This document shows positions 664 through 62,810 of a stretch of 64,000 nucleotides of DNA, piece after piece. The stretch comes from Pelagomonas calceolata. Lineage: Eukaryota. The stretch covers positions 5,022,001 to 5,086,000 of the forward strand of contig CAKKNE010000003.1 in the NCBI GenBank assembly GCA_918797485.1, written 5' to 3'. Every line of letters starts with the position of its first letter. Position 1 is the stretch's first letter. The notes under the pieces are model-generated. The model ran no database searches. It was not told the DNA's origin and was given only the letters and a program-made list of their open reading frames with translations. Made by a program: the position numbers and the translations under genes.

Positions 664-790
664 TGTACCATGGTACCGTAGGTACCGTAGGTACCGTAGG
701 TACTACTACTGCGGTACTGCGGTACTTGCTGGTACTGCGGTACCTACGGTACTAGTCTGGTACTGTACAAAGAGCTCGTACCGTGGTACC
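664..790. promoter_or_regulatory. GTAC array (GGTACCGTA-type units) upstream of the NSF-like gene
   Basis: gtaccatggtaccgtaggtaccgtaggtaccgtaggtac...gcggtactgcggtac...gtaccgtggtacc, 115-240 bp upstream of the ATG at 549. A regulatory role is not shown. Confidence 0.7.
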
Positions 791-1066
791 TTAGTTCCCC
801 TTGACTAAAAGAGGTTTCTCATGGGATACCCGCAGCAGCTCGTGAATACGTGAGGTTTGTGGCTAGTCAGCGCAGTTATCAGACAGACTCCCACGTATGT
901 GGGACGGAACCCGCCGCGGTTTCAAGTTCAGATCACGGCGCTTTGGCTCGTAGCAAGCCATGTTGCCGGCTCGCCGGTAGTCGATAAAACACACACCTCA
1001 TCCCAGTGCAACTCTAGAGGCTCCTCCGGCCGGCAGGCAGCCGCGCCCCCCATCATCCTCGTCCAC

Positions 1067-1462
1067 TCAGTTCGCCCGTGCGTTCATGAGGCTGGAAAAG
1101 CGCCGTCGCTGGTACCCCGCCCACTCGACGAAGTCGACTCGGGTTGCGACGACGCGCTCCCGCCAGACGTCCGACTCCGCGGCCTGCGGACGTCTCGTCT
1201 CGGAGTCGCTTACCCCGCGTGCGGTAGCGTGGTCGCAGAAAGCGTCGGCAAAGTGATCGAGATCGAGGATGCGTGCGACGCCGCGCTGCGTCTTCCGACG
1301 CGGCGCAGCCTTCTTGGGAGCGGACCGAGCATGCTTGCGCGCCCTGGCGCTCTCGAGGCTCAGGCGACGCTTCTCCTCCGAGAGAAACGCACTTTTGTGA
1401 GCCGCGATTCGTTCCGTTCGCACGCTCGCGTCCGCGTACAGCCTCTCCGAAACGTGTGACAT
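1067..1462 (-). CDS. hypothetical protein
   Basis: 131-aa ATG ORF with coding-like composition, divergent from the next gene across a GTAC array (1586-1606); no family recognised. Confidence 0.45.
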   Translation of the reverse strand: MSHVSERLYADASVRTERIAAHKSAFLSEEKRRLSLESARARKHARSAPKKAAPRRKTQRGVARILDLDHFADAFCDHATARGVSDSETRRPQAAESDVWRERVVATRVDFVEWAGYQRRRFSSLMNARAN

Positions 1463-1737
1463 TGTTGTTTTTAAAGGGGCACAGCGAGGGCTATCTTGTG
1501 GCGCTCTGCTTGGTGTGGTCGGAGGAGGATGCTTAAATACAAGGTAAACCTGCCGCGAGACTCGAGACAGCCTGCTATACCATTGTACCTCGGTACCGTG
1601 GTACCTAAGCCTGGTATCCTGTCGTGTACTGTAGGCACAATGGCTACAGGTCCTGCGTCAAAAGCAGCCGGGTACGAGCTTGACATGCATCCAGTAGAGA
1701 CTAAAAAATAATAACGCGAGGCGCTGCGTGGCTTAAG

Positions 1738-3350
1738 ATGAGGCGAAGAAGACGTGCGCTCACGACGACAGCTTTCTTGCCGTTGCTAGCGGCGCCCCTC
1801 GCTCGGGAGGAGGCGCTGCCTCCCTCGCGCCACCAGCACCTATGCGTTCCGTGGACGGCGTCGCTGCGCGAAGCGTTGACGCGGTCGAACGCGTTTCTTC
1901 CCGACCCCGCGGCATTTGTGTCGCACCCGCCGGTGGACGCGGCCGCCGAGCGCCTCCGGCGGCAGCTGCGGCGGCTCGGCGAGAGCTGTCGCGCGCCGTT
2001 CCTGCCGATCGGCGGCACGAACGCGTTCGGCAGCCTCGTCAACGCGCTCGTGCTGCCGCTAAAGTTCGCCGTGGCGTCAAACCGGACGATGCTCACGCCC
2101 CCGCTCGGCGCCTACGCGAACGGCTCGTGCGCTACTCTGGCCTGCTTCTACCGCCCACTCGCGCCCGCCTGCGAGCGCGCGAACGGTTACCCCGCGCCCG
2201 TGCCGGGTCCTCGGCCGCGCTCGTCCGTCGTGGACGCCCTTGCGGTCAAGCAGGAGCGGCGCCGGCGCGCCAAGCGCTGCCAGGGCGCGGCAGCAGCACC
2301 GCGGTGCGACGACTACGAAGCCATCGCGCGTCGCGCCGCGTCCCCCATGCACCCTCTCTGTGATTTTGACTCTGCGAGCCGCAGGAAGCGCTGGGCGAGG
2401 CGACGATCCCGCGTGGTTGGCGTGCCGCAGTGCCGCGGCCAGACTCGTGCGACGAGACCTCATGCCGCGTGCCGACGCTCCAGGCCTCGGCGCTCAAGAA
2501 GATCGGTGTCGACCCTCCACCTGCGGCGTATGCGACTCAGGGGGGCTTTTGGTTTGTCTCGCAGCTCCTTGCGCGCGTTTTTGCAGCGTCTGGTCACATG
2601 CGCCCCAAATCTTATGCTTGTCGCGACCCAGGCATTTGCTCCGGCCAAACGACGCGACGCGGCGCCGCGTCGGCCGCCGCGCGGAGGCGGCGGGCCTGCG
2701 GCGAGCGCCGCGGCCGCTTCTCGGCATTCACGTTCGGCGCGGCGACTCGTGCCGCGAGGTGCAGGAGGCGACCAAGGCGCGTCGGTGTTCGCCCTTTGCC
2801 GAGTACTGGTACCACGCACTCGCCATGCGGGCGCGAGGCGGCGTTCAAGCATTCATCTCAGTAGCGAGATCTTCGCCGCAGGCGCGCTACGGCATCCGGT
2901 CCGTATTCCTCGCAACCGACGATCCCTCCGTCGTAGACGAGGCTCGGACAGCGGCCGCCACCGCTGGTCTGCCGCTCTACGCCATGCTCGCCAATCCGCC
3001 GGCCAGCGCCGGCACCGCACCGCCCCCACTCTGGGACTCAGCGCGCGCCCGTGTCAGACTCAGTTCGCATGACCCATGCTGAGGGCGCGGTGACTTGTGC
3101 CTTCTAGGTGCTCGCGCGTCGCGGCGTCGACGCGTCTTCCGCGGCAGCTGGCGTCGTCGACGACCTGGCGCTCCTCGGGCGCTGCGACGCGTACGTCGGC
3201 AAGTTCACCTCGAACCTAGACCGCATCGCGTATTCGCTCCTTGCGGCGCGGTCCGGGTGCCTGAAACCGGTCGTCTCCCTAGATTCGCTCTGGTGCCACG
3301 ACTGGTCCAATCGAGTCGGCCAGTCCCTTTTCGGGTCGTTTGTGTGTTGA
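1738..3350 (+). CDS. alpha-1,6-fucosyltransferase-like glycosyltransferase (GT23/NodZ-like), about 4 short introns
   Basis: Motifs across frames: FGSLVNALV, LGIHVRRGDSC, VFLATDDPSVV, DDLALLGRCDAYVGKFTSNLDRIAYSL; N-terminal hydrophobic segment. Confidence 0.75.
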
Positions 3351-4311
3351 TGCGAGCAAATCAAAATACACCTAATTAGGGATATTTAGAGCGAGGCGGC
3401 GCGGGCGGCGTGCCGCTAGTGTTCAAACCCGCGTCTACCCGCACGTTCCTAACTTGAACCTCTAACTTGAACCCTGATCTTAACCCTAACCTCACCACCC
3501 CGCCCCCCTGGTGGCCACGTGGGTCGACCTGGTGGGTACGGGGCCACTTAAAGCGCGTGCGGTAGCACGTGCTAAAAAGCCAATCAACTTGAAATTGAGA
3601 TGCTGAATCTAAAGTGATTTTTCAGCGATCTCAGCTTTGGTATGTGCTTGGATCTGATGAGCTGGGTACAATAAATGCACAATGCAGCTAAGGGTCACTG
3701 ACACGGACCACACGGTGACGGTCACGGTCATGGTAAAACACGTCGAGGAAAGAGCCACCAAGATGCATGAATCTCTTCTGTAAATGCAGTAATTTAGTTC
3801 TCGCCCCCGTTCGAATCTGACCATAGAACAGCGCAGCGGTCCGCGCGAGCCCTGGACGATTTTGGTGCACTTGTGCAGCTGCTGAAGACGGGCCTGTGTG
3901 GCCCGTGAGGCCTGCAAACTATAGTACGGTGAATACACCTATTCTCCTTACTTACCTACTTACTCAGGCTTACCCTACACACAACGAATCGCCACCGGCG
4001 CCAGTCTAAATTCACTATGTTACTAGTATTATCACTAAATTACATTAATGAAACTATGTACTATTTGGGAGTCAATTCTAAGACTTATGGGGTTAGCCTC
4101 ACTTCATCGGGGCAGACGATCTGCCAGTGCGCCCCCGGGCCGTACTGTTCACAGTGCTGGGCATAGTTTGCCAGTGTGTCCGAGGGTTCTAAGTTGGTAA
4201 TGATGGCGAACTCTATACTAGTAGACCCGCCTCACCTCGGGCAGGCTCGACACACTGGCAGACACACTCAGCCCACCCAGACTTCCACCCAGCCGGGCGA
4301 CTCGTTGTAAT

Positions 4312-6390: not shown

Positions 6391-6535
6391 TAGAGAGAGA
6401 AACCTACTAGCCCTTCCTACCCTAGATATGTATCTCCCACTCTCTAAATTTGAGTCTATATATTGAGTGTCTATCGACGCTACGGTGTAACCAATTTACT
6501 ATAAGACACTCTCGTAGTTGGCTTGGCTCAGCCTC
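6391..6535 (-). repeat. dispersed repeat family A, copy 1 (others 10836-10989, 34788-34957, 49000-49157, 62545-62698)
   Basis: Shared TAGAGAGAGAAACC...CCCTAGATATGTATCTCCCACTCTCTAAATTTGAGTCTATA...ACACTCTCGTAGT; the (CT)n end is fixed and the other end varies. Confidence 0.9.
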
Positions 6536-7520
6536 CGCCGAAATGACGTGGAGCCCATTTCGCTATTCGTCTACACCTTGTCGAGCGCACCGTTTGACGC
6601 CCGCGTTTACAATCAAACCTCATTGCACTACAAAACCCTTATGGTCATCGCATCGCCCGGGGGAAAAAAGCCTGCCCCCATCAGCCCTTGGGGCACGGAC
6701 GGCGGCGCGGCCCTTACGGGGCACCCAGGCAGCCGCACCGCCCACGCCGGCACGCTGGATAATCACCCGGCGTGCCGGCGTGGGAGCTACTGGTAGGCAT
6801 TACTGGTAGTAGGCAGAGAGATACTAGATAGCCCACGGGCAATGGGCATGCCGTTCCTCGCATGTATCGCACGACCGGGTCTGACTCGGAATCTGGCTCT
6901 GATGGGGAGGAGGAGGACGACACTTGATCTCCGCGGGATTTCTGAGCTCATGGTCCGACCGGGCGTGCGCGAGGGCCTCGCGAACGCGTCATGGCGGCGT
7001 TCGGCGCGGCGCGACATGTTGGGCAAGTAGGCGATTCATCCTCGGCTTCCTCGCAATTCAACGGGTCGACGGGCCTTCATTGGCGATGTTGACTCACCCC
7101 AGAAATTCAAGCTGCTTCCGATGGCAACTCTTCGGGTCTTCCGTCGGCGCAATGTCGTGAACGCGAGGGTGTTTTTCGCGACTCCCCCGCGGGCGCGGCG
7201 GCGGGCCGGCGGCCGGCTACGGAGATTCTCGCCGGCGGCGGCACTCGGGCACGACTCCACGGAGCGGCGGCGCGGCGGGATCCCGTATGCCTTGACGAGC
7301 TCTGGGTCGGGTCTCAAGCAAAGCGCCTCCGCGTCCGCGTTCAGCAGAATCAAGGTTGTGTGGCGGCGGTTCCCTTTTTTTTTCCCGCACATCGCTGCAC
7401 GACCTCTGCGACGAGTCTCCTGGGGCGGGGAGGGGTCCCGCAAGACCGCGCGCAAAACCCGTCGGTTAAGCTTAGTGCTTCACAGCGGACCCGCACGGCC
7501 ATTTGGCATCGGGATCGCCG

Positions 7521-8803
7521 CGTACGCTGTACCAGCGCGCTGCGCGTTCCTCGCCCCGGTTGTTACTTCCTCAGGGCGGCCAATGGGCCGCGTAACCAGC
7601 TTTTGGGCACCGCTCGTCGCGCTGGCGCCGCGCACTGCATAGGGCTTTCCAGCGCGATTTGGGCTTTTGGGGCCTCACGTCGCCGCGTCGCGTCGGCATT
7701 GGTAGGTTTTTGGACGCGAAGCTCATAGGTAGCATAGCCATGGCTGACCGGGCGGGCTTGGGCAGGCGACGCCGGAATCGCTCGCGGTAGACGCGTCGAG
7801 ACGGCCCGATCGCGGACCTGTTGCATTGACTAATACGCTATCCCTGGAGCCGCACGGCTCTTCGGCGTCGACGCACCCATACCGACGGCTGATCCCGCAC
7901 CTCTTTGGGATCTTCCGACTGCGGAAGCTCGTGGGCGCCTTCTTTGCGGTACCGCTCCCGAGGGCCGACACCGGCACCGGCGCGGACGGCCTCGTTATTG
8001 GAAGATTTTCGAACTGGAGAGTCGGTAGCATCACGGCGCCCTTTGGTGGTCGTGGCGGACCCTGTTGGCGGCGTTTATGTCGGGCTCGTGATGAGTTGTA
8101 ACCAGGAGCCGGCCGCCTTTCGTCTAGGTCACGCCCAGGCGCAATGTAATGTATTCATACTGGTCTATTACTCCGCCCGCCCTACTTGGGCGAAGGCTTT
8201 CGCGAGGGCTTGCGCTATGAGTCTCCCTAGAGGCCTCTAGACCATGCCCGGAGCCAACAGGTCCGCCGCGAGCTCCAATGGCCGCAGTGATGCTACCGAC
8301 TTGGCCGCGGACCCGCTGCGCCATCGTCGAGGCCGTCCGCGCCGGTGCCGGTGTCGGCCCTCGGGAGCCCCACTGAGGAGAAGGCTCCCATGACCTAACC
8401 CAATCAATACATGTCGGAGAGGTGCGGGATCGGCCGTCGGTATGGGTGCGTCGACGCCGAAGAGCCGTGCGGCTCCAGGGATAGCGTATTAGTCAATGCA
8501 ACAGGTCCGCGATCGGGCCGTCTCGACGCGTCTACCGCGAGCGATTCCGGCGTCGCCTGCCCAAGCCCGCCCGGTCAGCCATGGCTATGCTACCTATGAG
8601 CTTCGCGTCCAAAAACCTACCAATGCCGACGCGACGCGGCGACGTGAGGCCCCAAAAGCCCAAATCGCGCTGGAAAGCCCTATGCAGTGCGCGGCGCCAG
8701 CGCGACGAGCGATGCCCAAAAGCTGGTTACGCGGCCCAGTGGCCGCCCTGAGGAAGGGACAGCCGGGGCGAGGAACGCGCAGCGCGCTGGTATAGCGTAT
8801 GCG
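7521..8803. repeat. about 1.3-kb foldback (long inverted repeat)
   Basis: 7521-7904 is the near-identical reverse complement of 8418-8803; weaker inner arm matches 7955-7994/8327-8368 and about 8021-8070/8252-8300. Confidence 0.9.
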
Positions 8804-9820
8804 CCCTTTTTGATGCCAAGTGAGCCACTTAGACTTTAGGGGCGGATCGCAAAAAGAATTAATAGGCAAAACGGGTTTTTCCGATTATGGGACCCCCCCC
8901 ATAGATCCTAACATGGGAATGTCGGGAGCGCCATGCTTACATATTTGGGACGAGGCGCCGCCTCATCGATCCTCTCCCAGTAGCGAGCTCCCGACATTGA
9001 GAATAGTCTTCCTTCGTTAATCGGGCTACCTACTAGTAACCCACTAGAATCAGGCCCCGGCTGCTCACAGCTTTTACGGCTGCTTGCCGGCCCGTCTCTG
9101 TCAGCGGGCTCTGTCTGGCATCCACACATGACATATACCTGCCGCGGGCGATTTCAGAAATCAAGCGCGGCCCAAAATCGCCCAGGACAGCCATTTTGCG
9201 GAAGTACCGGTGCACAGCGATGCGGCACCGCGTCGGCCGACCTCGCGCGCTCTCACGCGACGCGCTCCGACCGACGCTCGGTTTTTGAGATGCCTACCGC
9301 GGCGCTGGAGGCATTTAGTGAGCCCTATTGCCCCGAACGCGGCCTCGGCCGGTAGTACCAGCGGCCGGCGACGGTCAACATAACGGCGCCACGATGCCAG
9401 GCGTGCGTTTCCAGCCACTGCGATCATATCGAAACCGCGTGGGATCATCGAAGACCGCTTTTGGTTCCGCACCCAAAACGCCAGAAAAAAACGTAGGCGT
9501 CTCGCGGCCGTAACTTTTCACCACCCGATCCGTTTGTTGCACCCTTGGGACCGAACCAGACTTATTGACGTACGCCTAAAGGATGGTGACCCCGCTCAGG
9601 GGTCTGGGGGCGCTCCTAGCGAAATCGGGTTTTAGTGTCCGCCCCGAACTTAGTACTAGTACGTGAGCCATGGCCTATGGTGCGGGACCGCTGTGGCTTG
9701 GCTAAATGGGCGTCTTGAGTACCCACGGACGAGCGGTGAGGAACCGCGGACTTGCCTATCGGACGGGGGACCGTGTCCGATGCTGCAGTACAGCTCCTAA
9801 CAGATAATCGGGCGGCTGTC

Positions 9821-10729: not shown

Positions 10730-10835
10730 CCCGCGATCATGATGCTGCTGTGTAAACTTCTGGTAAGATCATCTCACGGACTTTCTCACGGTTCGAGTTC
10801 AACTCAGGCTACCGTGTGACATCATGATATTTCCA

Positions 10836-10989
10836 AGCACGCCACGTACGAGAGTGTTGTACTTTAATTCCCTAGCAAACTGGATTACAAAGTAGCGTCG
10901 TTAGACACTCAATGTATAAACTCAATTTAGAGAGTGGGAGATACATATCTAGGGTAGGAACTTGAAGGGCTAGGGGGTTTCTCTCTCTA
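10836..10989 (+). repeat. family A copy carrying a CTTGAA insertion, followed by a GTAC array
   Basis: AGGAA[CTTGAA]GGGCTAG here versus AGGAAGGGCTAG at 62671; followed by tacggtaccgtaggtaccgtaggtaccgtacc. Confidence 0.85.
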
Positions 10990-11362
10990 CTACGGTACCG
11001 TAGGTACCGTAGGTACCGTACCGTGACTGCCGCGGCGGTGGGACACCAGTAGGGCCTGATTATTCCAAGCTCATGATAGTCCCTTATTCTGAACTCTCGC
11101 AGCGCAATGTGCCGAGATTTAGTACTATCTCTAGTGACTATTGTTGGGATGATTGGTCACACTAAGGCATGCCTGATTATCGATGAACAGTGGGATGGAA
11201 GGAGCCGATTTGACATCATCGAATTTCTGTTCAGCTTGAGCGTGTGCTTGATCGAACGCGTTTTGCACTGAAGAACCTACAGGAGGTACCTACGGTACCT
11301 ACGGTACCGTAGGTACAGCATGAGCATGACATTGTGCGCATGCTGATTGATTTCCGGCAGCC

Positions 11363-13068: not shown

Positions 13069-13501
13069 AAGCTCCGGTTGGGTCACGGTATCCTGACTGA
13101 GCAGGGCGAAGGCTCATAGCTTGTTCCTTATTTTTTAGATCTTCCATATAGGCCTTACTGCCAGAAAAACCAGTAATCATTAATCAGCTCGGAGCCAGGC
13201 CTTCACCAACACGCCCGCGCACGCCGCGACGACTCACGCTTCTCCGACCGGCAGCAAGCTTACGTACACGCTCGCGGGGGATAGCTCCCCCGACACTTCC
13301 CCCAAAAGGACTTGATAGTAGAGAACCCGAACTCACCCTAGGGGGTCCCAAAACCCGAAATGATCGCTAGCGGCCAAACGCTGTCGACGTAGAAACCCGC
13401 GAGCTCAGGAGGCCCGGGGCTCGATCGCCAGTGATTTATCTTTAGCTTTGTCTTAGACTAGCGGCCTGTACTTAGATAGAGCAGGTAAGACACTAGCAAG
13501 C
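13069..13501 (+). mobile_element. stack of repeat fragments (family D 13069-13145, family C 13200-13305, family E 13375-13458, motif G 13458-13501) upstream of DBP4
   Basis: Each piece is the reverse complement of a piece in the 28963-29515 stack, in the same order relative to the gene. Confidence 0.75.
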
Positions 13502-21418: not shown

Positions 21419-21493
21419 CCCGGCGTTTGGTGCCTGCGGACGTTATGAACAGCGCGCCCACAGCTATACAGAGTCTAAAGAGTAAAAGTTAAT

Positions 21494-27163: not shown

Positions 27164-27182
27164 TTATTATTTTTTTTTGTTT

Positions 27183-34624: not shown

Positions 34625-34974
34625 TACCGCAGTCGCGGTGAGGCTGCCCAGAGACGACGCACGTTATGAGTAAGATGTACGGTCTCTCTCGGGGGCAGGG
34701 ACCGCATTCCGGCTCCCGGGTCAGCAGCCCGCACCGGAGTGATTCACAGATGAGCGTACCGGTACCGTGGTACTTGCTGGCACCACGTAGAGAGAGAAAC
34801 CACTAGCCTTTCCTACCCTAGATATGTATCTCCCACTCTCTAATATTTGAGTCTATACATTGAGTGCCAAAAGCACTACGGTGTAACAACAGTTCACTAT
34901 AAAACACTCTCGTAGTCAGGCCTATCAGCCCTAGGCTGGTTAGCTAGGACCCTGCTACTTTACATAACGCTGAA

Positions 34975-35491
34975 ACATACTCTTGCTAGGTTATGGGCCC
35001 ACAGGGTTCTGCCTATTGACGTAGAGTGTTTTACAGTGAACTTGAATGCCTAAACAAGGAAAAACACCCAAAAAGAAATCTAAAGAGAAAACACCCCAAA
35101 AGAGCGGAGAAAGTGAATATCCAGCGATGGATGAAGATGAATTTAACCGGCTCTTTCAAAACGCGATCGAACCGTGACAATCATAAGCGCGTTTACTTGC
35201 TGGCAAGTTCAAGTTGCTGCCTCGATTCTTGTGCAGCTAGATCACTTCTAGTTTTCAGTTCATCCATGAATTTAAGAAGAGCCATGTCTGCGTCGGGATT
35301 TGCTGAGACATAGGTTCTCAGGGCAGGCGATTCCAGTTCCACTGCTCGATCCGCGGCCAGTTTCCGAGGGAGAAGGAAGTATCCTAAAATACAGGCCACT
35401 AGCCTCTGATATCCACTAGAACCTGAGAGGAGCTCTAGATAAAGGTAACTACAGCATCATAGCACAATCGCTGTAGCGACATACTCTTGCA
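34975..35491 (+). mobile_element. decayed Copia-type fragment with primer-binding site
   Basis: GGTTATGGGCCCA (34989-35001), the copia-type tRNAi-Met PBS, follows ACATACTCTTGCTA; ACATACTCTTGCA recurs at 35479-35491; AT-rich interior. Confidence 0.5.
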
Positions 35492-35732
35492 GCTGGTACC
35501 GTAGGATACCTACGGTACCGTAGGTACGCCCTCTACAGTCCCGACCATCGTTCCTGCGGTACCGGCACCGTGGTAGTACGTGCACGTCGTGGCGCCAGTT
35601 TGCTTGGAGACGACGTATCATACGTTGCACAAGCTCTAATTGGCATTGCCTTCGTCCAACTTTTTCCCCCAACACTCACTCTCGAAGCCTAGGACCCTCG
35701 CTTATTTGATGACGTGCAACATTGTTGGAAGG

Positions 35733-37451: not shown

Positions 37452-37566
37452 GTTTCAATCTCCTGACTCGACGAATCAGAAATGGATTCTAGTAGAGGCT
37501 TTATTTATTATCCGATTCGAGTGTGTACATCACAGGAGGCAGCCGCCAGACGCGCCATCCATCGGC

Positions 37567-39610: not shown

Positions 39611-39775
39611 CTGTTCGTGACTTGAGCCAGGACGGCTCGATGCGGAGCACTGATGATGAGAGTTACAACTCGTGCATGCTACATGTACCTGCGGTACCAC
39701 GGTACCAAGTACCATGGTACCGTACCGACCGGCTTGAAAAGTTTTCTTACTGAGCGGGGAGAAAAACACACACAG

Positions 39776-40714: not shown

Positions 40715-40959
40715 GTGCGACACATCGCAAAGGCAGACGTGTCGCGGCAGCCTGAGCCCGGTATCCGTACCAGGCCGTCCGGGGGCCCGGGTCCCCGGGG
40801 CTTGGCGTTCAACGGCCTCCTTCCACTCATAAAGCTCCTAACTTTGCTCTGGTTCACTATTTTAGTTATTTTCAATTATATCTTGAAACCTGGATAAGGT
40901 ACGAACTTGTTTACCGTAGGTACCGTACCGCATTAGGTACCCGGGCCGTACCGCAGTAC

Positions 40960-41082
40960 CTGCTATGATATGGCCACGGCCCCTTTTCCACATATAAATC
41001 TCCCAAATTTTATCTTAGCTTCACTATCCTAGTCTCATTTATCTTGGTTAGATACCCGGATAGAATAGGCCTAGTGAATACG
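40960..41082 (+). mobile_element. family B element, internally deleted copy (CTGCTATGATATGGCCA...CCTAGTGAATACG) inside a GTAC array
   Basis: Both termini are shared with the 60217-60707 copy; GTAC on the left, GTAGGTAC on the right. Confidence 0.8.
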
Positions 41083-41299
41083 GTAGGTACCTACGGTACC
41101 GTAGGTACCATACCGCAGTAGGTAACGTACCGTAGGTACGGTACCGGTAACCCCCTACTGCGGTACAACAGGCCGAAAATCGCGGTAAAAGCCACGGCCA
41201 CTCCGCTGCGCGGCCCAGTGTCTATCGCGGTTGGGGTTAAAACGCCTCGCCAGCTTGAGCCGTTCGACCACGCACCGACGACAGCGCGCGCGCAGGACG

Positions 41300-42068: not shown

Positions 42069-42176
42069 TTGGCGTGGAGCGGCGCGGCGTGCTTCCCGCG
42101 CGCCCGTGCCGCCCTCGCCCGCGCCCGTCGGGCCCTAGGCCGCCGCGGGGCGCCCGAGAGTTCCGTGGGACTGGAA

Positions 42177-42239
42177 ACGCGCACCTGATGACGCGCCGTC
42201 GACTCCGCTTCGGGGTCCGCGGCGTCGAAAACCTGCCGT
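42177..42239 (+). promoter_or_regulatory. candidate SECIS element in the PDI 3'UTR
   Basis: ATGA (42188)...GA (42227) core; helix GCGCCG.GACTCC / GGGGTC.CGGCGT; lower helix ACGCGCA/TGCCGT; no apical AA. Confidence 0.55.
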
Positions 42240-44443: not shown

Positions 44444-44797
44444 AACACTGCATTTGGTTACCAGTATGGTTATCGTAGGTACGGTTAGCTCCGAGCATGC
44501 CTAGAGGTACCAATAATAACAAAAACCCTTGAATTCCATAGAGGCACTCTACCTACCCAGTATCGTATTCTCCCCGTCTCCAGTATTCGAGTTTAGACTG
44601 TTGTTCATCTATTGGCATTGCCCTTGGTGCGGCAGGTCACGGCGGTGCCCGCCGGGCCCGGGCTAGTGACCGTGACCGCGACACAGCACTTCACCGGCAC
44701 GGTCGCCGGTTACCGGAGCACATAACAGGTCGGCTCTGAACGAAACCCCGGCGACGCGGACGGACGGGTCACGAGGCTAAACTTGAATGAAAGAAAT

Positions 44798-46645: not shown

Positions 46646-46805
46646 GCTACCCGCGCTTCGACGCCATGGTTTAACGGTAACTATGCTCGTTATACCAATC
46701 GTTGTGATTGTCTATTACATTTTCGCGCCCATGACGTGTATTTTATCCCTTGAAACGAGGCTGTATCCCCATGCCTGCCTGCCTGCCTGCCGAACCAGTA
46801 CCGTG

Positions 46806-47780
46806 GTATTCACTAGGCCTACTCTATCCGGGTATTTAACCAAGATAAGTGAGACTAGGATAGTGAAGCTAAGATAAAATTTTGGGAGATTTATAAGTGG
46901 AAAAGAGGCCGTTGCCACAACGGGCGCCAACCCCAGGGACCCCGGACCACGCGCCCCCGCGCCAAAACAACCAAGGGAGGGTGGGAGGGCCAAAAATTCT
47001 TGCTCCTTTGTCCTGCGCTCGCACAATCGGAGCGCTGTTGGACACGAGCAAGTATAAGAAAGTATCTTGCAGCGAGCCACTAGATGTGACGATATTGCTG
47101 CCAAGATACCAAAACATAGCTGACACTGGCAGACCTGAGTCAGCCTTACATAGGTTCGGGACAGCCCTTGGGTCTCTTATTAAAGCTCCTTCTGTAAACA
47201 GAGGGCTGTTGACCCCTCTCATCACGGGCGCCGCGGGATTACAACGATCCACTGATTGGATTCAAAGGTTGAACAAGAAGTTCCGGGGAAAACCCCACCT
47301 TTAGGGGAATTACCATAAGCCCCTTTGGCAGTGCCTGAGCTAAATTGGTAAGACAATTTAGCTCGCCAACAAATCATACAGATTTGCGACAGGTCGAACA
47401 GTCAGTACCACGGGGTCTGGCAACTAGGGGAAAGAAAATTTCCGGAAATTTCGGAAATTTCCACCCCTCTAGATTTCATTTCCTGGAAATTGCTCAACTA
47501 TAGGCCCGGGGTCACGGTGGGAGGGCCAAAAATTCTTGCTCCTTAGTCCTGCGCTCTCACAATCGGAGCGCTATGGGACACGAGCAAGTATAAGGAGGTA
47601 TCTTGTAGCGAGCCACTAGGTGTGACGATATTGCTACCGTGACCAAGATACCAATCATAGCTGACAGACCAGAGTCAGCCTTACAAAGGTTCGGGACAGC
47701 CCCTGGGGTTCTCATTAAAGCTCCTCCTGTAAACAGAGGGTTGTTGAACCCTCTCATCACGGGCCGGGCGCCGCGGGATC
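46806..47780 (-). mobile_element. family B copy with a duplicated ~255-bp internal segment (46981-47238 / 47517-47779)
   Basis: TATTCACTAGGCCTACTCTATCCGGG end as at 60217; the two direct copies differ by substitutions and 5-6-bp indels. Confidence 0.8.
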
Positions 47781-47844
47781 TGAAAACTTGAAAAAGGAAC
47801 TAGCTCCTAAGACTCGGAGCCTTCAAGTTCTCCCTGCTAGTAGG

Positions 47845-48855: not shown

Positions 48856-48999
48856 CTCTTTCCTTCACATTGGCAGCGAGAACCGCATCATAAACCGTAA
48901 GTCGTACGGTAGTAGGCGAGTGTCATCATCTATGCGGAGCCCCAATGGGCTGCGACGGTTTATGGTCGTACCTGACCAACTTTGTCATGAGGCTGAAGC

Positions 49000-49645
49000 T
49001 AGAGAGAGAGAAACCCTCTAGCCCTATGTATCTCCCACTCTAAATTTGAGTCTATACACTGGGTGTCTAACGGCGCTACGGTGTAAACCAATTTATAATA
49101 AAACACTCTCGTAGTTGGTTTGGCCCAGCCTCTGGCTGGTGAGCTAGGACCCTGCTATAGCCTGAGCCTGACTCGGAGAGGCTGAGCCTCGTCTGATATT
49201 ATTTTCCATGCGCTTTCAGATGGTTCGACATCCGTGGCTGTTTCGCCATCAGTCATGTTATGCACAGAGCCTGTATCATCGTCTGATGACTCATCGTCTG
49301 ACGACTCAGACAGAAGATTCGGCAGGGAATTGATTGAGAAGATTGATTCATCATCTGATTCATCCGATTCGACGTATGCACCATATGCCTGAAGCGTGGC
49401 CTCATTGGGTATGTCTGGATGCACTGTTTGTCCAACCATGAGGGTGTCACGGTTGCCTGGGGCGCGTGGTCCGGGGGCCCTGGGGTTGGCGCCCGTTGTG
49501 GCAACGGCCTTTTCCACTTATAAATCTCCCAAATTTTATCTTAGCTTCACTATCCTAGTCTCATTTATCCTAGTTAAATACCCGGATAGAATAGGGCGTG
49601 TGAATATACGGTACGGTATTTACGGTACCTACGGTACCGTAGGTA
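49000..49645. mobile_element. back-to-back family A (49000-49157) and family B (49460-49610) copies plus a GTAC array in a divergent promoter
   Basis: Family A (CT)n end faces the ATG at 48855, family B TACG end faces the ATG at 49771; an acidic ORF fragment lies between them. Confidence 0.75.
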
Positions 49646-49770
49646 TGCGCAGAGAGAGCACCAACTATCTTGCGGTTGTCGTTTAAGCTTACCTCACGCG
49701 TGGGATTTGAGGACAGCCCGAAGACCACAGCCGGACCGCGGCTCACCAGTCTACTCGACAGACAGCCGAG

Positions 49771-50738
49771 ATGATGCCAGCCCGCTGCTCGGATGGCCCC
49801 GCGCGCAAACGCGCGCGAGCTCTCCAGGACGACGACGACGGCGCGAACGACGCTCAGGACGACGCGCCGACCTGCGAGGTGTGCGGTCGCCATCCGCGCA
49901 AGTATTGCTGCCCGCGGTGCGCGTGCGTGACCTGCTCGCTGGCCTGCTGCGCGGCCCACAAGCGCGCGACGGGCTGCGATGGGCGGCGCGACGCGGCGGC
50001 GCACCGACCACTCAAGGCCATGGGCCTCCGCGAGTTGCGGGCCGACTGTGCGTTTCTCGAGGCCGCCGCGCGGTCGCGCGCCACGGCCGAGCGCGCGCGT
50101 CGCGCCGCGCCTCGCCTCGGCGGGCGAGAGCGGCGCGGCCGCAGCGGCGAGGCGCCCGCCGCGGCGCGGCTCCGGCGAGCGGCCGAGCGCCGCCGCATCC
50201 GACTACTCCTCATGCCTGATGGAATGGTGACCACCCGCGCGGACGACGGGGACGGCGAAAACGCTCGGACCGCCCTTTTTCTCGCGCGCAGGCCAAACGC
50301 CGACGCAATGGTAGCCACTACGACGCCGCGCGCGACGCGATCCGGTGGCGCGTCGAGTGGCGCGTCGACGGCGCGACGCTCGTCGACGAGCGCGCCGACG
50401 AGCGGACGCCCCTCCGGGAGCTTCTGGCCGCCCACGCGGCCGCCGCCGGGCGCCGACCGCCGGTCGCGTGCGACCTGCAAGACCCGGAGACCTTCGCACT
50501 CCTCCTCCTCCGGGCGCCCGGTCCGGCCAACGACCCGCGCTACGATCGGCTCGATCCCAGCGTAGGCCTCGACCTCAACCTCGCCGACCGGTGCGTTATC
50601 GAGTACCCCCAGATTGTTGTCGCGCGGCCGGGCGACGTCGATCGGCGCTTTCGCCTCGCGCCGAATCCCGTCCAGCTCTTCTTCGCGGACGACCAGTCCA
50701 CGTCTGCAGGCGGGCACGGGGAAATGAGAAGGGCGTAA
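49771..50738 (+). CDS. BCD1: box C/D snoRNA assembly factor BCD1/ZNHIT6; intron 50227-50291
   Basis: zf-HIT CEVC..KYCCPRC..TCSLACCAAHKRATGCDGRRD; LRADCAFLE; LMPDGM/AKRRRN..IRWRVEW; VIEYPQIVV. Confidence 0.85.
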
Positions 50739-51211
50739 AGTCCCGGGTTCAAGGTACTGCAAGTTCTAGTTGTACTGCCAGTGTCCGAGTCCGCGAACGT
50801 CGCGCCAGTACTTTGCGCCCAGCGCGGAAATTAAGGCCGATTTGACTATTCAGGCATAGTAAACTTTTTGAACAAATTCGGAGATGTCTTGAAAACCCAG
50901 TACGGTTTTCGGACATCTTTTGAAAACCCAGCCTGAGGTTTTTCCGCCCCGCCCCCGGCCCTCATACGCGAGTGCTAGCTTGCGCCAGCCTGAGTTGCGT
51001 TTCGTCCGACCAAGTGGCTGGGAACTCGAATCTCAGATTAGGGGACCGCCCCCGATCTTCAGTCATCTTCCTTAATTAGATTCCTTAATTTATATAACAC
51101 TAGTGGATGAAACTACTCGTGATGTGTACATATCAATTGACAGACAGAGCCCCAGCGTTTAATAGTACTACTAGTAGTAGTAAAATTGGTTCCGAACACC
51201 AGGTCTTTAGA

Positions 51212-51829
51212 TCAGTACCTGACAGGACCCGAGGGAGGCGTGAGGACCAGACGCGCGGGACCCGCGCCGGATACCCCCGACCTGGCGCCGACGCGTAGCG
51301 CGACGACGGAGCCTCGCCGTGGAAGCCGCACGAGGGCGTCGCACGGCATTCGGAGCCACAGATTGTCGCGCGTCGCGTCGACGATCGCGCCGATCTCCCC
51401 GACAAGCCCTGGAATCGGCGCGCGGCAAATATCCACGAGGGCGCCGGTGGGTTCAAGCGCCGCGCCGCGCCGCGCCGCACCCCGGGATCGTCTGGTCGAC
51501 TCGCCGACCGTCGCCGCGGCGTACGACGTCCAGCCCCCGCGGAGTGGACCCGTCTCTCGCCAGGTCGACAGCTCCGCGCGCCGCGCGGCCGCCGACACAA
51601 CGACGGCCGCGCGGCCTCGTCGCCGCCGCCGCCGCGTGGGTCCGGTACCGAGGAGGAGGGCCCGGCGCCGGAGCTTCGAGCCGAAGTGCCCCCGGGAGAC
51701 TGGACCCGCGTTGGTCAGATGCCGGGCGAAGTACGCCACCGCGTCGCTGGCGTCTCGCGCACGCTGGTGGCAGTGGTCTCGGGGGGGCAAGGGCGCGTAG
51801 TGCAGCCGACTCGCGCGTGCGGACGACAT
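51212..51829 (-). CDS. POP4: RNase P/MRP subunit POP4/Rpp29-like
   Basis: LEPTGALVDICRAPIPGLVGEIGAIVDATRDNLWL..VRLPRRGSVVAL resembles the Rpp29 Sm-like barrel. Confidence 0.6.
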   Translation of the reverse strand: MSSARASRLHYAPLPPRDHCHQRARDASDAVAYFARHLTNAGPVSRGHFGSKLRRRALLLGTGPTRRRRRRGRAAVVVSAAARRAELSTWRETGPLRGGWTSYAAATVGESTRRSRGAARRGAALEPTGALVDICRAPIPGLVGEIGAIVDATRDNLWLRMPCDALVRLPRRGSVVALRVGARSGVSGAGPARLVLTPPSGPVRY

Positions 51830-52055
51830 TGTTGCTGTTGACGCTTGAATCAGGCCCGTGCGTTTTAGTTTTGCGCTATTTTTTAGGTTCCGCAAGCTGT
51901 GCAGCCAGCGCTGCCGTGGCACCTGAGATTGCCTGCGGTACCATGGTAGTATTGGTACCTACCGTAGGTACCGTAGGTACGGGACTCGGCTTCTTACCAG
52001 TAGCTACTGCGGTACCTACGGTACCTACTGCGGTAGCCTAGCGCGCAGTTGGGAT

Positions 52056-52486
52056 AGCTATAGTCAATTTGGGTTTTGCGCGCGATTCCTGGCGCACCTA
52101 GAAGGGGGGCTAGAGGGGGGGGGGGGCACGCGCTAGGGGGGGGTATCGGGGGAGCTATCCCCCGCGAGCGTGTACGTAAGCTTGCTGCCGGTCGTAGAAG
52201 CGTGCGTCGTCGTCGCCGTGCCCGAGCCCGGGCGGCGCGTTGGTGAAGTCCGGGTTACCGCCGACGAGCCGGGGGCCGTCGATCTTGATCCGGGCGTACT
52301 CGCGCGCCGTCTTGATGCCCCAGCGACGGTAAAGGCGGTTCTTGAGCAGGGCGGCCGTGTGGTCCTGCGAGGTCGCGCCGTCCTCGACCCAGGTCCGAGC
52401 GGCGGTCGCGTCCGCGGTAGTCGCCACCATATTCCCGCTGGAAGGGTGCGCACCACCGGGGCGCTCGAAGACGACGTCGACCCACT
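52056..52486 (-). mobile_element. longest family C copy; encodes a C-terminus resembling RLE-type (CRE-like) non-LTR retrotransposon proteins
   Basis: ADATAARTWVEDGATSQDHTAALLKNRLYRRWGIKTAREYARIKIDG...ARGG-stop, then a short 3'UTR abutting the GTAC array at 51935-52036. Confidence 0.6.
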
Positions 52487-52675
52487 CTCAGGCTGGCGCG
52501 GCCCACGCCCGGCGCCAGTATAAAATTTCCCCACGGAGCCGTAAGCGTCGCAGGCTCATTCATTCTAATTAGAGCTTAGGGAAGGTTTACAAGGCAGAAT
52601 GTGACTCCAAAGAATTACGCCGTGTCCGGCTAGGGGGGGGCGGGTGCTGTACGTACTAATTGAACCATACAGATC

Positions 52676-54856: not shown

Positions 54857-57191
54857 CTTGCACGGGATAGCCGATTCCCGCGTGTGTTTTGATCGACAGG
54901 ACTTGCTCTACAGGTTATTAGAGGGGGGGGAGACCGTAGGTACCTCGAGAGTAGGCATCCTAGAGTCTGTGGCTAAATTCATCGTAGCTCCTCGGCCCTG
55001 CCCGAGGTACTAGTGTGCGCGCCGGCGCCCGTCGGATCTGTGTGTTCGGTGTTCGGGTTTCTTACGCGAGCTCCACGCCGCGCGGAGCTCGTCGGCGAGC
55101 GGCGCCGACCTGTGTTTTTGGCGGTGAGCCTCGTGCGCGAACCCCGGTGCCTCCACGCCATCGACGAGACCTCGCGACATTCCCGCCGCGTCGATGGTGC
55201 ACGAGCTCTCGCGGACGGCGCCCCACGCCATGCTGCATGGCCACCTTATCGTACTCGTCACGGTGGCGACTTCCAACATAAATTTCACGTCTATCGACGG
55301 CGTCGTACTCGAATCGACGATAAAAAACATCAGAAAAATCATTTGACGAATAAATTTGGACCAAAATCCGAACCGGTGTACTCTAGTGAACAAGGTAAAT
55401 CAATGGATTTGGAGAAGTATGACCTGTATGAAGTATGAAGGTCCTTATAACAAATCAAATACCTGCCCCACGAAATTATCTCAACAGTTATCGGAGTATC
55501 TGGTGTGAGTTCTTGCTCTAATTCATCCGTGTGGGAATATCCAAAGTCCTCGTAAAGTTTGTTACGATAATTCCTAACGTTTGCAAGCCACACCAGAACC
55601 GTACTCCGTACTTCTTTAAGCGTTTCAGCAGAGATTGGATCTGTACATTTGACCCAGGAAGGCAGGGTAGGCTGGGTAGCTTCGACTTCGCGAGGTAATC
55701 TATTTAGGTTTTCTCTAGTTCTCTTCTTCTTAGAGCGTCAAAGTTGCACTTCAGTTTCACTAATGTACCGCATGCGGTACATTAGTACCAAGATCTCATA
55801 TCGTCCGAGTCCGTTCTGCCCGTCCTCCAATGGGGAGCGAAACCCCAAGGCCAACTCTGAGGACGATGCTGTCGGGGCCCCAAGACGGTGAGGCCAAGAC
55901 CTCATGCGTCGTTCCGCCACCCCACGGCGCCAAAGCGCCAAGCCCCCCAATGGGACGCGGGTGTCGGCCCGCGGTCGACTTCTATATTGAAGTTTTGATC
56001 CGTGTGCCTGGCGATGAGTCAGTTCGGCAATGAGCCAGTCTGAGGAGATACCGCCCCCGGGGCGCGGCTTCCAGAACTCCGCGCTCGGAAATCGTGGGCT
56101 AGCGGCCTGTACTTCAGGTAAGACACTAGGCATCCCTATAATAATATATTATATAGAGGAAGCGCTTAGCTCTACCGGGGGGGTTTATAATTGTACCCAG
56201 GTACATGTGCCCTCCCCTTCACCTCGCCTTATGGGGCCTTATGGGGCCCAGTCAGGGTTGTACATTACACAGGCGTCTATACGTACCCCCGCCCGCGCCC
56301 CAAAGCCCTGGGTTTGAGCGCTCGGGACGTTTTGGCCGACCGCGAGCGCCCCACGGCGGTGCGTTGCGGGCCACTTTTCGCACGAGAATCTGCTCATTTC
56401 GGGCGTATCGAGGGTGCAAGAGCGTCGTCACTGACCTCATGACCCACGCCCATGGGCTGGTGAGATTGCCCGCGGCCAGGATTACCCGTGAGACATTCAA
56501 CTGTTCGAACCCATGCACCGAACGCGGTAAAATGGGTGCCGAATGCAAAGGAGATCGACTTATTGGCGACCCATGCATTGTAAGTGAGCGAGTGATGCCT
56601 CGAGTCCGGAGCGACACTAAATTCCAGCCGAGACCGCGATCCGAATGGGTTATGACCCATAGCACTTCGGGACCGACCGCGACCAGCAAAACAAAGCGAA
56701 GCCGTCGGCCGCTAACCGTCACGCTGCGCAGGCACCGGCTCTGGACCAGGCACAAGGAGCACGCAAAGCCCGGAGATATACGGACGCGATAAACGTCGGC
56801 TTGGAGGGAGTCGAGCCCAGGCCCCAGGGAGAGCAGATTTGGGGGCACATTTGTAGCTCGCGACGCAGGCCGAATAAGTGGCTACCAGTGCAAGGTAAGT
56901 TGGCCAGTGGCCGTCCGAGGTAGCCCCACGTGGCTGCTGCACCAGCCGTTGCGCCGGCCGCGCGCCGTGCGCTTAACGCTAACCTGGGTACAATAACCAA
57001 CTTATTACCCAGTAGCAAGCTCTCAGGCTGGCCTCTAATTGCTCTCACACGAAGTCCCTTTACCAACGCACTAGCCGCTGGAACTGATACATTGGAGCCG
57101 AGCGCCGAGCCGGGCTACTTTACCGCACCTCGTCTGACTCAGTCCAAAAGAGAGCCAAAGATCACAGTGAGCGGAGGATGCGACAGGGGTG

Positions 57192-59576: not shown

Positions 59577-60117
59577 TCAAGAGCCCCGGAAGAACTCGGC
59601 TTCGTCCGCATCTAGGCTGCTGTTTTGCTTTTCGGTAAGGTCTCGAGGTTCGAGGAGGTACATGATCTGCGCCTTTGTCTTGTACTGGAGCATGGCCTCC
59701 TGGAGCCTGCGGGAACGCGGAGCAAGCCGGTCAGTGCGGATTGCGAGAGCCGTGCCGTGGCAGGGCCCCACGTACGAAAAGAATAATCTCTCGAACGCGG
59801 CTGCGCGCTCGGCCTTCCCCTTGTGGACCAAGATCGCCGCGGTCCGCGGGTCTTCGATGTGCGCATTTTGCCGGAACATGTCCTTGACTTTGCCGCGCGC
59901 CTCGCGCACCGACATGTCCACGTCGAAAAGTGTCAGAACGGTTGGCACCTGTGTGCATATCAACGTTAAAATTCTCGGACGACGCGGCGCTACTTTTAAC
60001 TCAGATGGCGCCGTGGCATTGGGCACCGGTTGGCACGTTGCGGCAGCAGTTGCGAAAGAGCGCCAGGGCTGTCCCCGTCAAGCGTGCGGCCGGCTGCTTG
60101 AAGGCGCGCAGGGCCAT
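59577..60117 (-). CDS. NDUFA6: complex I LYR subunit NDUFA6 (B14); introns 59949-60036 and about 59707-59808
   Basis: ALALFRNCCRN/VPTVLTLFDVDMSVREARGKVKDMFRQNAHIEDPRTAAILVHKGKAE/LQEAMLQYKTKAQIM. Confidence 0.85.
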
Positions 60118-60216
60118 TTCAGGCGCAGGCGGATAGCGTGCAATGCGCCAGCCTCCCTGCGTGCGGCCCCGCTGCAGTACCTTGTGCTTTTGTACCGTAG
60201 GAGGTACCGTAGGTAC

Positions 60217-60707
60217 CGTATTCACTAGGCCTACTCTATCCGGGTATTTAACCAAGATAAGTGAGACTAGGATAGTGAAGCTAAGATAAAAATTTGGGAG
60301 ATTTATAAGTGGAAAAGAGGCCGTTGCCACAACGGGCACCAACCCCCGGGGACCCCGGACCACGCGCCCCCGCGCCAAAACAAACCAAGGGAGGTGTGGC
60401 ACTCCCTAACTTAGCCAGCATCCGCGCCATGTCCTCATATTCGACGCGAATCAAGACACGTCTCAAATCAAGCGTATCAGCACACGGCCTAAGTTTCTCA
60501 CTGGTCTCACCAAACACTTTGTAAGCTATCGCATGTTGCATATGGCTTTTCTCCGTCATCCAGTCGATAACGTCCGCCCATCTAGCATCAAGTTTTGCGC
60601 TCCTCACTAATCTTAAGAATTGGACTTGACTTGCAGCAGGCACATCAGGACTAAAGGGCATGTTCATAGTGGCACTGTCCACAAGAGCCTTGGCCATATC
60701 ATAGCAG
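60217..60707 (-). mobile_element. family B element, 491 bp, flanked by GTAC on both sides
   Basis: + strand: GTAC|CGTATTCACTAGG...TGGCCATATCATAGCAG|GTAC; no terminal inverted repeat beyond C...G. Confidence 0.8.
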
Positions 60708-60799
60708 GTACCGTAGGTAGGTGCCGTGGTGCTCTTGCCTGTGCAAGCGCGCACTGGGCTGGCAGTGAATTTATCATTCGATGCCACACTCCCTACTCC

Positions 60800-62045
60800 A
60801 TGAGGCTCTTACGAGTGCTCGTCTTGGTGCAAATGGGAGAAGGTCTGATCCAAGGTACGCCAGCCGGCGCGGTGGCTGAGCCGTCGCAGGCTGGCGACGA
60901 GTTGTCGCCTGAGGATGCGCTTCTCTGTGCTCCAGCGCGAAGGAATTTGTCGGTTAGCACTGGCATCCTAAAGATGGCACTATATACCTACAGCTTTGGC
61001 AATTACCGCCACGAAATCTCGCAATATCGCCCGTGGGATGATTTCCACGGTCAGGACTCGCATGGAAATTAAGGAGGGGAGTTGCCTTCAACGGCAGGTT
61101 CTCTCAAAATAATGCGATTTCGTTCGTCCAATGTGACGGAGTATCCACTAGGTGTTGCTATTTCGCACAGGCTGGGACCATCGGTACGTCTTCTGCGACA
61201 CAAGTATCACGCAGAAAATGGTCGCGGACGGATGGATTCAGTGTCTGGTGCCTCCTGGCTACCTCCCGCGGGCCACATTCCAAGTCCATCGCACACGCAA
61301 CGTCAGTGCAGGCTGGGACCTGACCAAGTTTTTCAAATTTGGGCACGTGGCCGCGGTCCTTCGACCCTTTGACTACCTCCTTCACATAGACTTCAGTTTC
61401 ATTGCGACACGTAACAAGTATTTCTACTTTCTACCGCGTTTTGCCGATGTCGAAGCACTCATCCGCACGAAGCCAGAAGTAGAGCTCATCGCACTCAGGC
61501 ACCGTGAGAGGGCTCTCGTTCGCAGCGAGTGGCAAGTAACAACAAAAAACAAAATGGAATTCCAGCATCTAATCTGCCAGTTTGGGCAGGCAATGAGGGC
61601 CAAATTTGGTAGCGAGGCGAGCACTGGCGTCAACCGGTTCTTGTTTCTTAACAACCTTTGGCTAACGCAGGTAGTGGATGTAACACCACTGTTTCTCATG
61701 GGCTTATTTGTCCGCAAGGTCCATAATGTGCCAAAGCTTGATGTGATTTTTGCTGATACAGTCCGCACCCTTGTATCATTTGGCTTGAAACGAGATCAGA
61801 ACGTCTTTCCGCTTGCTCTCTGGAACAGATATGGAAACATGACTTCTATCAAGGTATTAATGTGCGGCAGGAACATTTCAACTGCAGTTTGCCACCCCGC
61901 ACGGAACCCCCCCGCATCGTCGACAATTAGAGATTTTGGCCGCCCCCTCGCCCTCACAGCCCGTTCAGCATGTAATCACACCGGTGAGCACAAGGCCTAC
62001 GACAAAGTGCTCGTCTACGACCCGGGACCCACGCGTATGTCGTGA
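60800..62045 (+). CDS. DUF616-like glycosyltransferase, low GC; intron about 61050-61170
   Basis: ALYTYSFGNYRHEI, FFKFGH, YLLHIDFS, LIALRHRERALVRSE, KRDQNVFPLALW. Confidence 0.6.
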
Positions 62046-62810
62046 CGAAGAGCTTTGCAAGAATTGCGTCGATGTTGGCTCAAGCTGAGCCAGCGCCTCC
62101 CCGAAGCGGCAGAAATATGGCACCGCTCAGCATCGACCTCTGGCTGCGACATCGATTCGGCCACCTTTCACAGAAACTCGTCGATGGCCCGCCCGTGGGA
62201 AACGCATCGGGGAACCAAATGGGAATCGCATTCCAGCGATTGAAATGGACCGGGTGTTGCTGGCGTGCTCGATAGTAGTGCAATGGAAATACACGTCTAG
62301 TAGGATTCCAATGTTCAACTGAGACGTATCCAAGCACACCCGTACTACTAAAAGCTGGTACGCCGAGAGTGTTGTATACTCGAGAATGTATCTCATTGTG
62401 GCTCAACTTGAACAGTGTAACAATTAAATTCCTAGCCTGAGATGGATAGTCCGGGGCCTATGCGTCTAGTGGACTCCGAGTCTTGGGAGGCCAGTAGCCT
62501 GAGGCCGGTAGCACGCATGTGATGCTTGTGGCCACCAATGTCTAACCAGCCTAGGGCTGATAGGCCTGACTGCGAGAGTGTTTTATAGTGAACAGTTGTT
62601 ACACCGTAGTGCTTTTGACACTCGATGTATAGACTCAAATATTAGAGAGTGGGAGATACATATCTAGGGTAGGAAGGGCTAGTAGGTTTCTCTCTCTAGT
62701 ACCTACGGTACCACCTACGGTACCTATACTGCGGTAGGGAGGAGGAATGCGCCGGAGCCTTCACAGTACTTGGAGCGCCACACGCGGCATGAGCCGGCAG
62801 CGTCTGCTTG

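Follow-up and report, generated by a model that had tools for sequence, protein, structure and literature searches.

Arrays of TA-flanked inserts at gene starts in Pelagomonas calceolata, the probable stacked footprints of TA-targeting elements

What builds the clusters of GTAC that lie in front of genes in the pelagophyte alga Pelagomonas calceolata? The question is raised by a stretch of 64,000 nucleotides of GC-rich, eukaryotic DNA with GC-AG introns (positions 5,022,001 to 5,086,000 of the forward strand of contig CAKKNE010000003.1, assembly GCA_918797485.1; hereafter the window). A sequence-only reading of the window had described arrays of GTAC upstream of start codons on either strand, and had explained them by an element that duplicates its 4-bp GTAC target. 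Our results show that the duplicated target is TA, not GTAC, and that GTAC is a G-TA-C junction, made of a unit ending in G, TA and a next unit starting with C. We consider it probable that the arrays are stacked excision footprints of TA-targeting, Tc1/mariner-like cut-and-paste elements that landed repeatedly at gene starts.

The arrays stand far above chance. Gaps of 8-9 bp between successive GTACs occur 33 times in the window, whereas block shuffles (3 x 100) average 0.9-2.4 and never exceed 7 (mean 2.4, maximum 7 in the 100 that preserve 4-mer counts per 1-kb block). Clusters of at least three GTACs number 15, against a shuffle maximum of 5; the same gap count gives 1-5 for each of seven other palindromic 4-mers. 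Clusters were present where the sequence-only reading had placed them, with 3-14 GTACs in 11 of its 14 intervals. The three weak intervals are 44470-44511, with two GTACs 28 bp apart and zero intact units, and 54933-54944 and 60708-60720, with a single GTAC in each; the ATG near 60708 is uncertain, and a long open reading frame (ORF) begins at 61218. The spacers that it had named between GTACs are found as well (CGTAG/CTACG 18 times, CGCA/TGCG 5, CACG/CGTG 4, CATG 2). Two arrays (10995-11021, 40912-40959) and three single units (31589, 31930, 46799) had escaped it, and all five sit in spacers with a 5' end. With a unit defined as TA-word-TA for any of 11 words, the window holds 43 units. Gene starts are our own reading of ORFs and Pfam matches, made with no curated annotation. 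The piles and units, together with one copy of the dispersed repeat B that several of them adjoin, are as follows (repeats A and B are located further below):

665..789: largest pile, 10 TA-flanked units (CCATGG, 3x CCGTAGG, 3x CTGCGG, CTTGCTGG, CCTACGG, CCGTGG), which lies 116-240 bp ahead of the ATG at 549 (minus)
1585..1604: small pile (CCTCGG, CCGTGG) that separates the divergent ATGs 1462 (minus) and 1738 (plus)
10991..11021: pile adjoining the end of repeat B, ~340 bp upstream of an MFS gene
11286..11316: pile of three 7-mer units in two orientations, with the MFS ATG (11363) 46 bp downstream
34756..34773: pile (CCGG, CCGTGG) adjoining repeat B, where the TMEM260-like gene (minus) gradually loses its RNA cover
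34783..34990, plus strand: copy of repeat B, dispersed, with internal TA sites empty or unit-filled depending on the copy
35496..35579: two clusters flanking the RNA 5' ends (35531-35532) of a plus-strand gene
39685..39725: pile (CCTGCGG, CCACGG, CCAAG, CCATGG, CCG) in a divergent spacer of 169 bp
40912..40959: pile between two repeat-A-like pieces
41079..41166: pile at a repeat A end, 133 bp ahead of the PDI-like start codon (41299)
46799..46809: lone unit TA-CCGTGG-TA at a repeat A end, 154 bp upstream of the ATG of an FG-GAP gene (46645, minus)
49607..49645: pile at a repeat A end, 126 bp upstream of a zf-HIT gene
51938..52036: 6-unit pile upstream of the ATG at 51829 (minus)
60177..60220: pile flanked by the ATG at 60117 (minus) and a repeat A end
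60709..60719: single unit TA-CCGTAGG-TA, neighbouring gene start uncertain
62699..62737: pile at a repeat B end, upstream of the ORF at 62811 (plus)

The last of these includes CTGCGG flanked by A-TA and TA-G, that is, without GTAC. A further stretch, 31345-32159, is a 341-bp tandem repeat of 2.4 copies (98%) that carries one TA-CCGCAG-TA per full copy (two).

The window was compared with metagenome loci, of which at least 123 are among the contig matches listed for a 20-mer asking for two tandem CCGTAGG units; since the search pattern is itself two CCGTAGG in tandem, counts of this word are inflated. Among these loci, 60 share a dispersed non-array repeat with the window and 69 carry at least two unit types, while 32, many of them short, show neither. 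Many have 47-53% GC and contain flagellar and cell-division genes, species not being verified individually; the accessible text of the P. calceolata genome paper describes low-GC regions with such genes (PMC9481584). Word counts cover the window and 82 loci (381,687 bases), after exclusion of 41: duplicates or alleles, six that looked like other organisms (L051, L069, L071, L078, L117, L157) and L058/L085, a single locus of which neither copy was kept.

When this sequence is split at TA, a small vocabulary emerges, counted on both strands, so that palindromes are counted twice: CCGTAGG 401, CCGCAG 56, CCACGG 48, CCAG 33, CCGG 28, CCATGG 22, CCAGCAAG 17 and CCAGCTTG 16. The inserts start with C and end with G, and the same words occur at unrelated flanks, that is, independently of the flank. 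CCGTAGG lies 401 times between TAs and once between any other pair of dinucleotides.

Alleles lead to the same target. In 24 pairs of overlapping loci (81,343 aligned columns), clean indels of 3-20 nt number 37, of which 10 are TA plus a unit, 5 follow the 8-mer rule described below, 5 are pure tandem and 17 other, so that alleles differ by whole TA-plus-insert units, as the sequence-only reading had anticipated. The empty alleles of the 10 TA-unit indels read GTAC in 6, GTAT in 2, TTAC in 1 and GTAG in 1, with contexts such as atTAcg, ggTAtg and ggTAgt. The duplication at one CCGCAG site can be read as TA or TAC and at a second as TA or GTA, and therefore only TA is compatible with both. L105 and L116 are alleles of one promoter with different units. 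Within repeat B, the site CA-TA-CT is empty in 13 listed rows (some of them the same locus) and is filled with CCGTAGG in L064/L073/L121 (one locus) and L048, with CCTACGG in L092 and L165, and with CCGCAG in L076; the RNA insertion table showed zero insertions at repeat B's TA. ATAC, too, occurs as an empty site. At 100 of 249 array edges the outermost TA is preceded by A, C or T, and isolated units are flanked by A, C or T, several with neither flank GTAC. These sites, edges and isolated units contradict a 4-bp GTAC duplication. Four DNA runs placed on 33500-52500 yielded metagenome contigs that often end near arrays and zero usable array alleles among those listed.

The orientation and nesting of units indicate how a pile builds up. 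Among arrays free of the search pattern, adjacent 7-mers point the same way in 10 cases and opposite ways in 9, and the unit following a matched pair is the same in 25 and opposite in 21; lone CCG, CGG, CC and GG tokens are likewise balanced (58, 53, 52, 51). Brackets of the form CCG..GG or CC..CGG are matched 35 times, against null means of ~20 and maxima of 30 and 32 in 1000 randomisations, and wrong-type pairing occurs 10 times; this pairing argues that new units enter the internal TA of CCGTAGG. Isolated CCGTAGG is found 9 times against 0.5 expected, and isolated CCGCAG 8 times against 0.7 (Markov expectation, itself raised by arrays), whereas isolated CCG and CC show no enrichment over the Markov expectation, and the 7-mer thus looks like the product of one event. 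Same-orientation runs of (CCGTAGGTA)n are also present. At the edges, G precedes the outermost TA in 149 of 249 cases (60% against a background of 26%), which suggests a G-TA preference or decayed older units. Nesting and edge bias together bear out the earlier proposal that the arrays amplify themselves.

Regarding position, the association with promoters holds in the unit-bearing spacers, in the metagenome loci and at two RNA 5' ends alike. Six convergent spacers, already reported as free of arrays, hold 0 units (265 TA, 4677 bp), and the 20 spacers with a 5' end hold all 43 units, 12 of the 20 being occupied (Fisher p = 0.017); 0 of 43 lie inside the gene spans drawn in the window. Within 300-bp flanks, 38 units are upstream (26 genes, 511 TA) against 5 downstream (25 genes, 410 TA), and these 5 belong to the promoter of the next gene. 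For 61 Pfam-supported ORFs of the metagenome loci, counting only testable cases, 21 of 52 have an array in the 500 bp before the first ATG and 2 of 54 in the 500 bp after the stop (p = 3e-6), the upstream signal being diluted because some of these ORFs are internal exons. In one poly(A) RNA run, of which ~6% was read, molecule ends lie at 35531-35532, directly after the cluster 35496-35527; the RNA 5' ends thus fall between the two clusters of 35496..35579, and the second cluster is part of the transcript. On the opposite strand, RNA cover of the minus-strand gene fades in bin 34720-34763, at the cluster 34756-34773. Both transcript ends are approximate, since the library was made without cap selection.

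A second kind of short insert, the 8-mers, behaves differently. A de novo scan recovered the rule XY-C-revcomp(XY)-G-XY, with GA-CTCG-GA present 119 times against 4.5 expected and AA-CTTG-AA 115 against 6.3; the rule word is the most frequent fill for 15 of 16 dinucleotides, and the bridge C..G accounts for 1372 cases against 322 for the next pair. Versions of 1 bp and 4 bp lack such excess, and the 3-bp version is weak (46 against 26). The 8-mers are polymorphic between alleles and nested. They lie mostly behind genes, with 53 downstream against 6 upstream in the window, 44 downstream (54 windows) against 27 upstream (47 windows) in the loci; convergent spacers hold 41 over 4677 bp, against 43 over 20,194 bp. 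This 3' bias implies that the 5' bias of the TA units is not mere survival in non-coding DNA. Dense 8-mer stretches occur in non-coding DNA of the window at 36917-37566 (17 copies) and 3350-4311 (10 copies), and also in loci L045-L167.

The sequence-only reading had given the arrays the same architecture as the 8-mers. This part does not stand, since 8-mers copy the flank in inverted form for any dinucleotide, whereas array inserts are fixed words found only between TAs. To judge from their sequence, the 8-mers look like the result of hairpin-type repair after an element with C..G ends and a 2-bp duplication; their parent element was not found. The inverted copying of the flank is shared with the hairpin footprints of hAT (Ac/Ds) elements, as described in the accessible part of PMC4561436. 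The 8-mers differ from the latter in their 2-bp rather than 8-bp duplication and their constant C..G bridge, and the TA-class inserts in that their fill is not an inverted copy of the flank.

How, then, would the TA-flanked words arise? Units of the form TA-insert-TA, with words that start with C and end with G, uphold the footprint-like origin with C..G ends proposed before. Under the reading that we prefer, footprints of TA-targeting elements, the change of one TA into TA-insert-TA, which the sequences show, would reflect an insert that is left of the element ends at repair. Every event would add TA targets (to three for CCGTAGG) in the open chromatin at the transcription start, and these added targets together with the G-TA preference would make the pile grow. 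Slippage may contribute some of the tandem copies, and the different words could derive from several element families or cut geometries.

Tc1/mariner elements are described as leaving at TA a footprint of target-site duplication, few element bases and target-site duplication, with 2-4 element bases in the accessible parts of the cited work (PMC3408717, PMC3878927, PMC4561436). The arrays resemble these Tc1/mariner/IS630 footprints (for instance Sleeping Beauty TA-C(A/T)G-TA, or Stowaway MITEs, miniature inverted-repeat transposable elements) in the duplicated TA with few bases between, in a flank-independent fill whose two orientations are reverse complements, and in the short words CCG/CGG, CAG and CCGG, which also occur here, as far as the same accessible parts go (PMC3878927, PMC4561436, PMC3408717). 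They differ in that their words are mostly 6-8 nt long, pile up and nest in dozens where genes start, and segregate in wild populations. We do not class them as members of the Tc1/mariner footprints, because the fill is too long and neither an origin from terminal inverted repeats (TIRs) nor a cognate transposase emerged from the window and loci. Among the rows listed from the published P. calceolata gene table, there is one Tc1-like DDE gene, Pca_3p03790 (PMC9481584).

Several observations weigh against an origin from such elements. Pfam scans gave zero transposase families in 199 locus ORFs (E<=1e-7), the longest non-overlapping of 480 (short or nested ORFs lying outside the scan), or in 41 ORFs of the window. 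TIR scans of window and loci gave other elements but no convincing TA-flanked element with CCG.. inverted ends, and repeat A ends in TA-CCGTA without a matching other end. The main words have 6-8 nt against 2-4 in known footprints, and short words are a minority once nesting is counted. Moreover, CCGTACGG, expected from two 5-nt CCGTA overhangs, occurs 4 times against 401 for CCGTAGG, and CCGCGG between TAs 0 times; with such symmetric-overhang products rare or absent, the cut geometry is unexplained. As to the alleles, 6 of the 10 TA-unit indels sit at GTAC sites, 4 of the 10 adjoin an identical unit, so that slippage is possible for these, and the indels are unpolarised. Transcript ends examined amount to two, both from ordinary poly(A) reads.

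Other routes to the words were considered. Symmetric joining of 5-nt overhangs is ruled out by the ratio just given (4 CCGTACGG to 401), CpG decay of CCGCGG as the origin of the 6-mers is unsupported by its absence between TAs, and telomerase-like addition is ruled out by the random orientation of units.

A broader picture, possible in our view but doubtful, has two spatially separate insertion systems rewriting the non-coding DNA of Pelagomonas with almost no visible parent elements: TA words at transcription starts, made by an unknown or domesticated nuclease or insertase, which would build or shift core promoters and provide fast promoter variation in wild populations, and flank-copying C..G 8-mers mainly behind genes.

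In a rather unlikely alternative, no full transposon is ever involved, and the repair of TA breaks in promoters would copy or capture a few fixed oligonucleotides, whose source might for example be an RNA template or the action of a domesticated transposase. It would accommodate ~400 CCGTAGG units with zero parent element in ~380-430 kb, words that exceed the known footprint length and are strictly asymmetric, a genome paper whose accessible text reports no transposon accumulation in low-GC regions, and a single DDE match for six Pfam identifiers among the gene-table rows listed (PMC9481584). However, the precise 2-bp target duplication and the C..G ends are hallmarks of a transposase, random orientation excludes a processive, telomerase-like addition, the sequence examined is ~1% of the genome and the gene-table count comes from the rows listed.

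SBP-domain factors bind sites with a GTAC core, and the clustered GTACs of the promoters are a likeness to such sites. Selected clusters of transcription-factor or core-promoter motifs with a GTAC core are, as an origin of the arrays, very unlikely. The strong 5' bias despite similar TA density (511 TA in 26 upstream and 410 TA in 25 downstream windows) and the RNA 5' ends at two arrays agree with them, but half of the window genes (13 of 26) lack a unit within 300 bp, the L105/L116 alleles carry different units, and selection explains neither the TA duplication nor the nesting, the proposal resting on position; GTAC in the arrays is, unlike an SBP site, a by-product of the junction.

Highly improbable, in turn, is a minisatellite with a 9-bp period around the palindrome GGTACC, growing by slippage and inverted by template switching. 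The same-orientation (CCGTAGGTA)n runs, the unit indels with an identical neighbour (4 of 10) and plain 9-mer tandems in a few loci of apparently other organisms agree with it; single units at unique TA sites, where no neighbour is available to copy, do not, nor do the nearly random orientation of neighbours, the nesting, and the same words at unrelated loci. Isolated inserts thus refute slippage as the origin, and as a secondary process it is likely. Among viral contigs, a 15-mer matched 44 times, in what on inspection seem to be chance matches or coding repeats, and 0 matches came from two longer patterns of the arrays and from one of repeat B. One giant-virus contig (L026:2760-2820, 30% GC) shows a short GGTACC repeat of 9-bp period, probably an unrelated coding repeat.

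The 4-bp GTAC duplication of the sequence-only reading, which would leave C, part of the inverted target and G by the hairpin chemistry of the 8-mers, is scarcely plausible, for although C-GTA-G, C-TAC-G, C-GT-G, C-AC-G and C-G can all be written as C plus a GTAC piece plus G, and GTAC prevails among empty sites (6/10) as does G at array edges (60% against 26%), the words CCGCAG, CCAGCAAG, CCAGCTTG and CCATGG are not GTAC pieces, the fill is constant across flanks, and the TTAC, GTAT, GTAG and ATAC empty sites, the 100/249 edges without G and the isolated units with neither flank GTAC stand against it.

Three repeats, all dispersed, intergenic and of unknown class, were delimited in the window:

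Repeat A: 46798-46984, 60216-60399, 40971-41083, 49459-49614
Repeat B: 6391-6535, 10873-10989, 34783-34990, 49003-49157, 62542-62698
Repeat C: 13191-13459, 21489-21718, 29010-29369, 30924-31073, 52120-52357

Repeats A and B often terminate at TA piles, and repeat B is abundant in poly(A) reads; its copy number probably reaches the hundreds, on a rough estimate (summed depth 479,093 against 399-619 in unique bins).

Other elements are distinct from the arrays. Direct duplications of 8 bp separated by ACTT or its complement AAGT (4273-4292, 10772-10791, 22151-22170, 26332-26351, 32212-32232) are possibly footprints of an element with an 8-bp duplication. A 2.2-kb element at 7481-9695 bears CACAG..CTGTG at its ends, has duplicated 4 bp (GCTT) and contains a long foldback inside (7500-8069 against 8253-8822, 89%); its ends are reminiscent of Chapaev/CMC elements. 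MITE-like elements with inverted ends and 8-bp flanking duplications (L057:6072-6516; L059:3015-3388) are what we take to be hAT-like. Introner-like inserts that start with CTGTGTG and have 8-9 bp direct duplications occur at 59949-60027 of the window, where one interrupts the minus-strand gene starting at 60117, and at L108:5477-5654. Pelagophyte introner elements, 956 of which are putatively present in P. calceolata (PMC9481584), come from the same lineage and are described, in the accessible texts, as MITE-like DNA transposons biased to nucleosome linkers (bioRxiv 2022.06.06.494994). They differ from the arrays in being whole elements with an 8-bp duplication within genes, whereas the arrays are element-less inserts with a 2-bp duplication outside genes.

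As to the genes of the window, a PDI/thioredoxin-like gene (41299-42068, plus strand) is interrupted by two GC-AG introns and has, within W-*-G-H-C, an in-frame TGA, a codon that likely stands for selenocysteine, to judge from this context. The sole Rfam match is a tRNA gene at 27090-27163 (plus strand). A PPWD1-like protein shares 55% identity with its best match in Aureococcus anophagefferens and 99% with the representative of a 615-member, mostly metagenomic cluster. In the accessible part of the published P. calceolata table, the gene order DDX10-like helicase, ENY2/myosin and TMEM260-like corresponds to Pca_3p27270, 27310 and 27360, and PF04438 and PF04765, both weak matches in the window, point to Pca_5p22380 and Pca_3p24790, off that gene block (PMC9481584).

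No prior description of these arrays was found in the literature searched, most subscription papers being beyond reach. Footprints of transposition are usually scattered and hard to see; here they are stacked at the transcription starts of a very abundant ocean alga, can be read by a simple rule and differ between wild alleles. The arrays would thereby record recent promoter-targeted transposition in a genome reported to have few transposons, and are a likely source of regulatory variation. The unusually long and asymmetric words would suggest that the transposase cuts with a new geometry, and the TA words together with the 3'-biased 8-mers would show two DNA-cutting systems that read different chromatin addresses.

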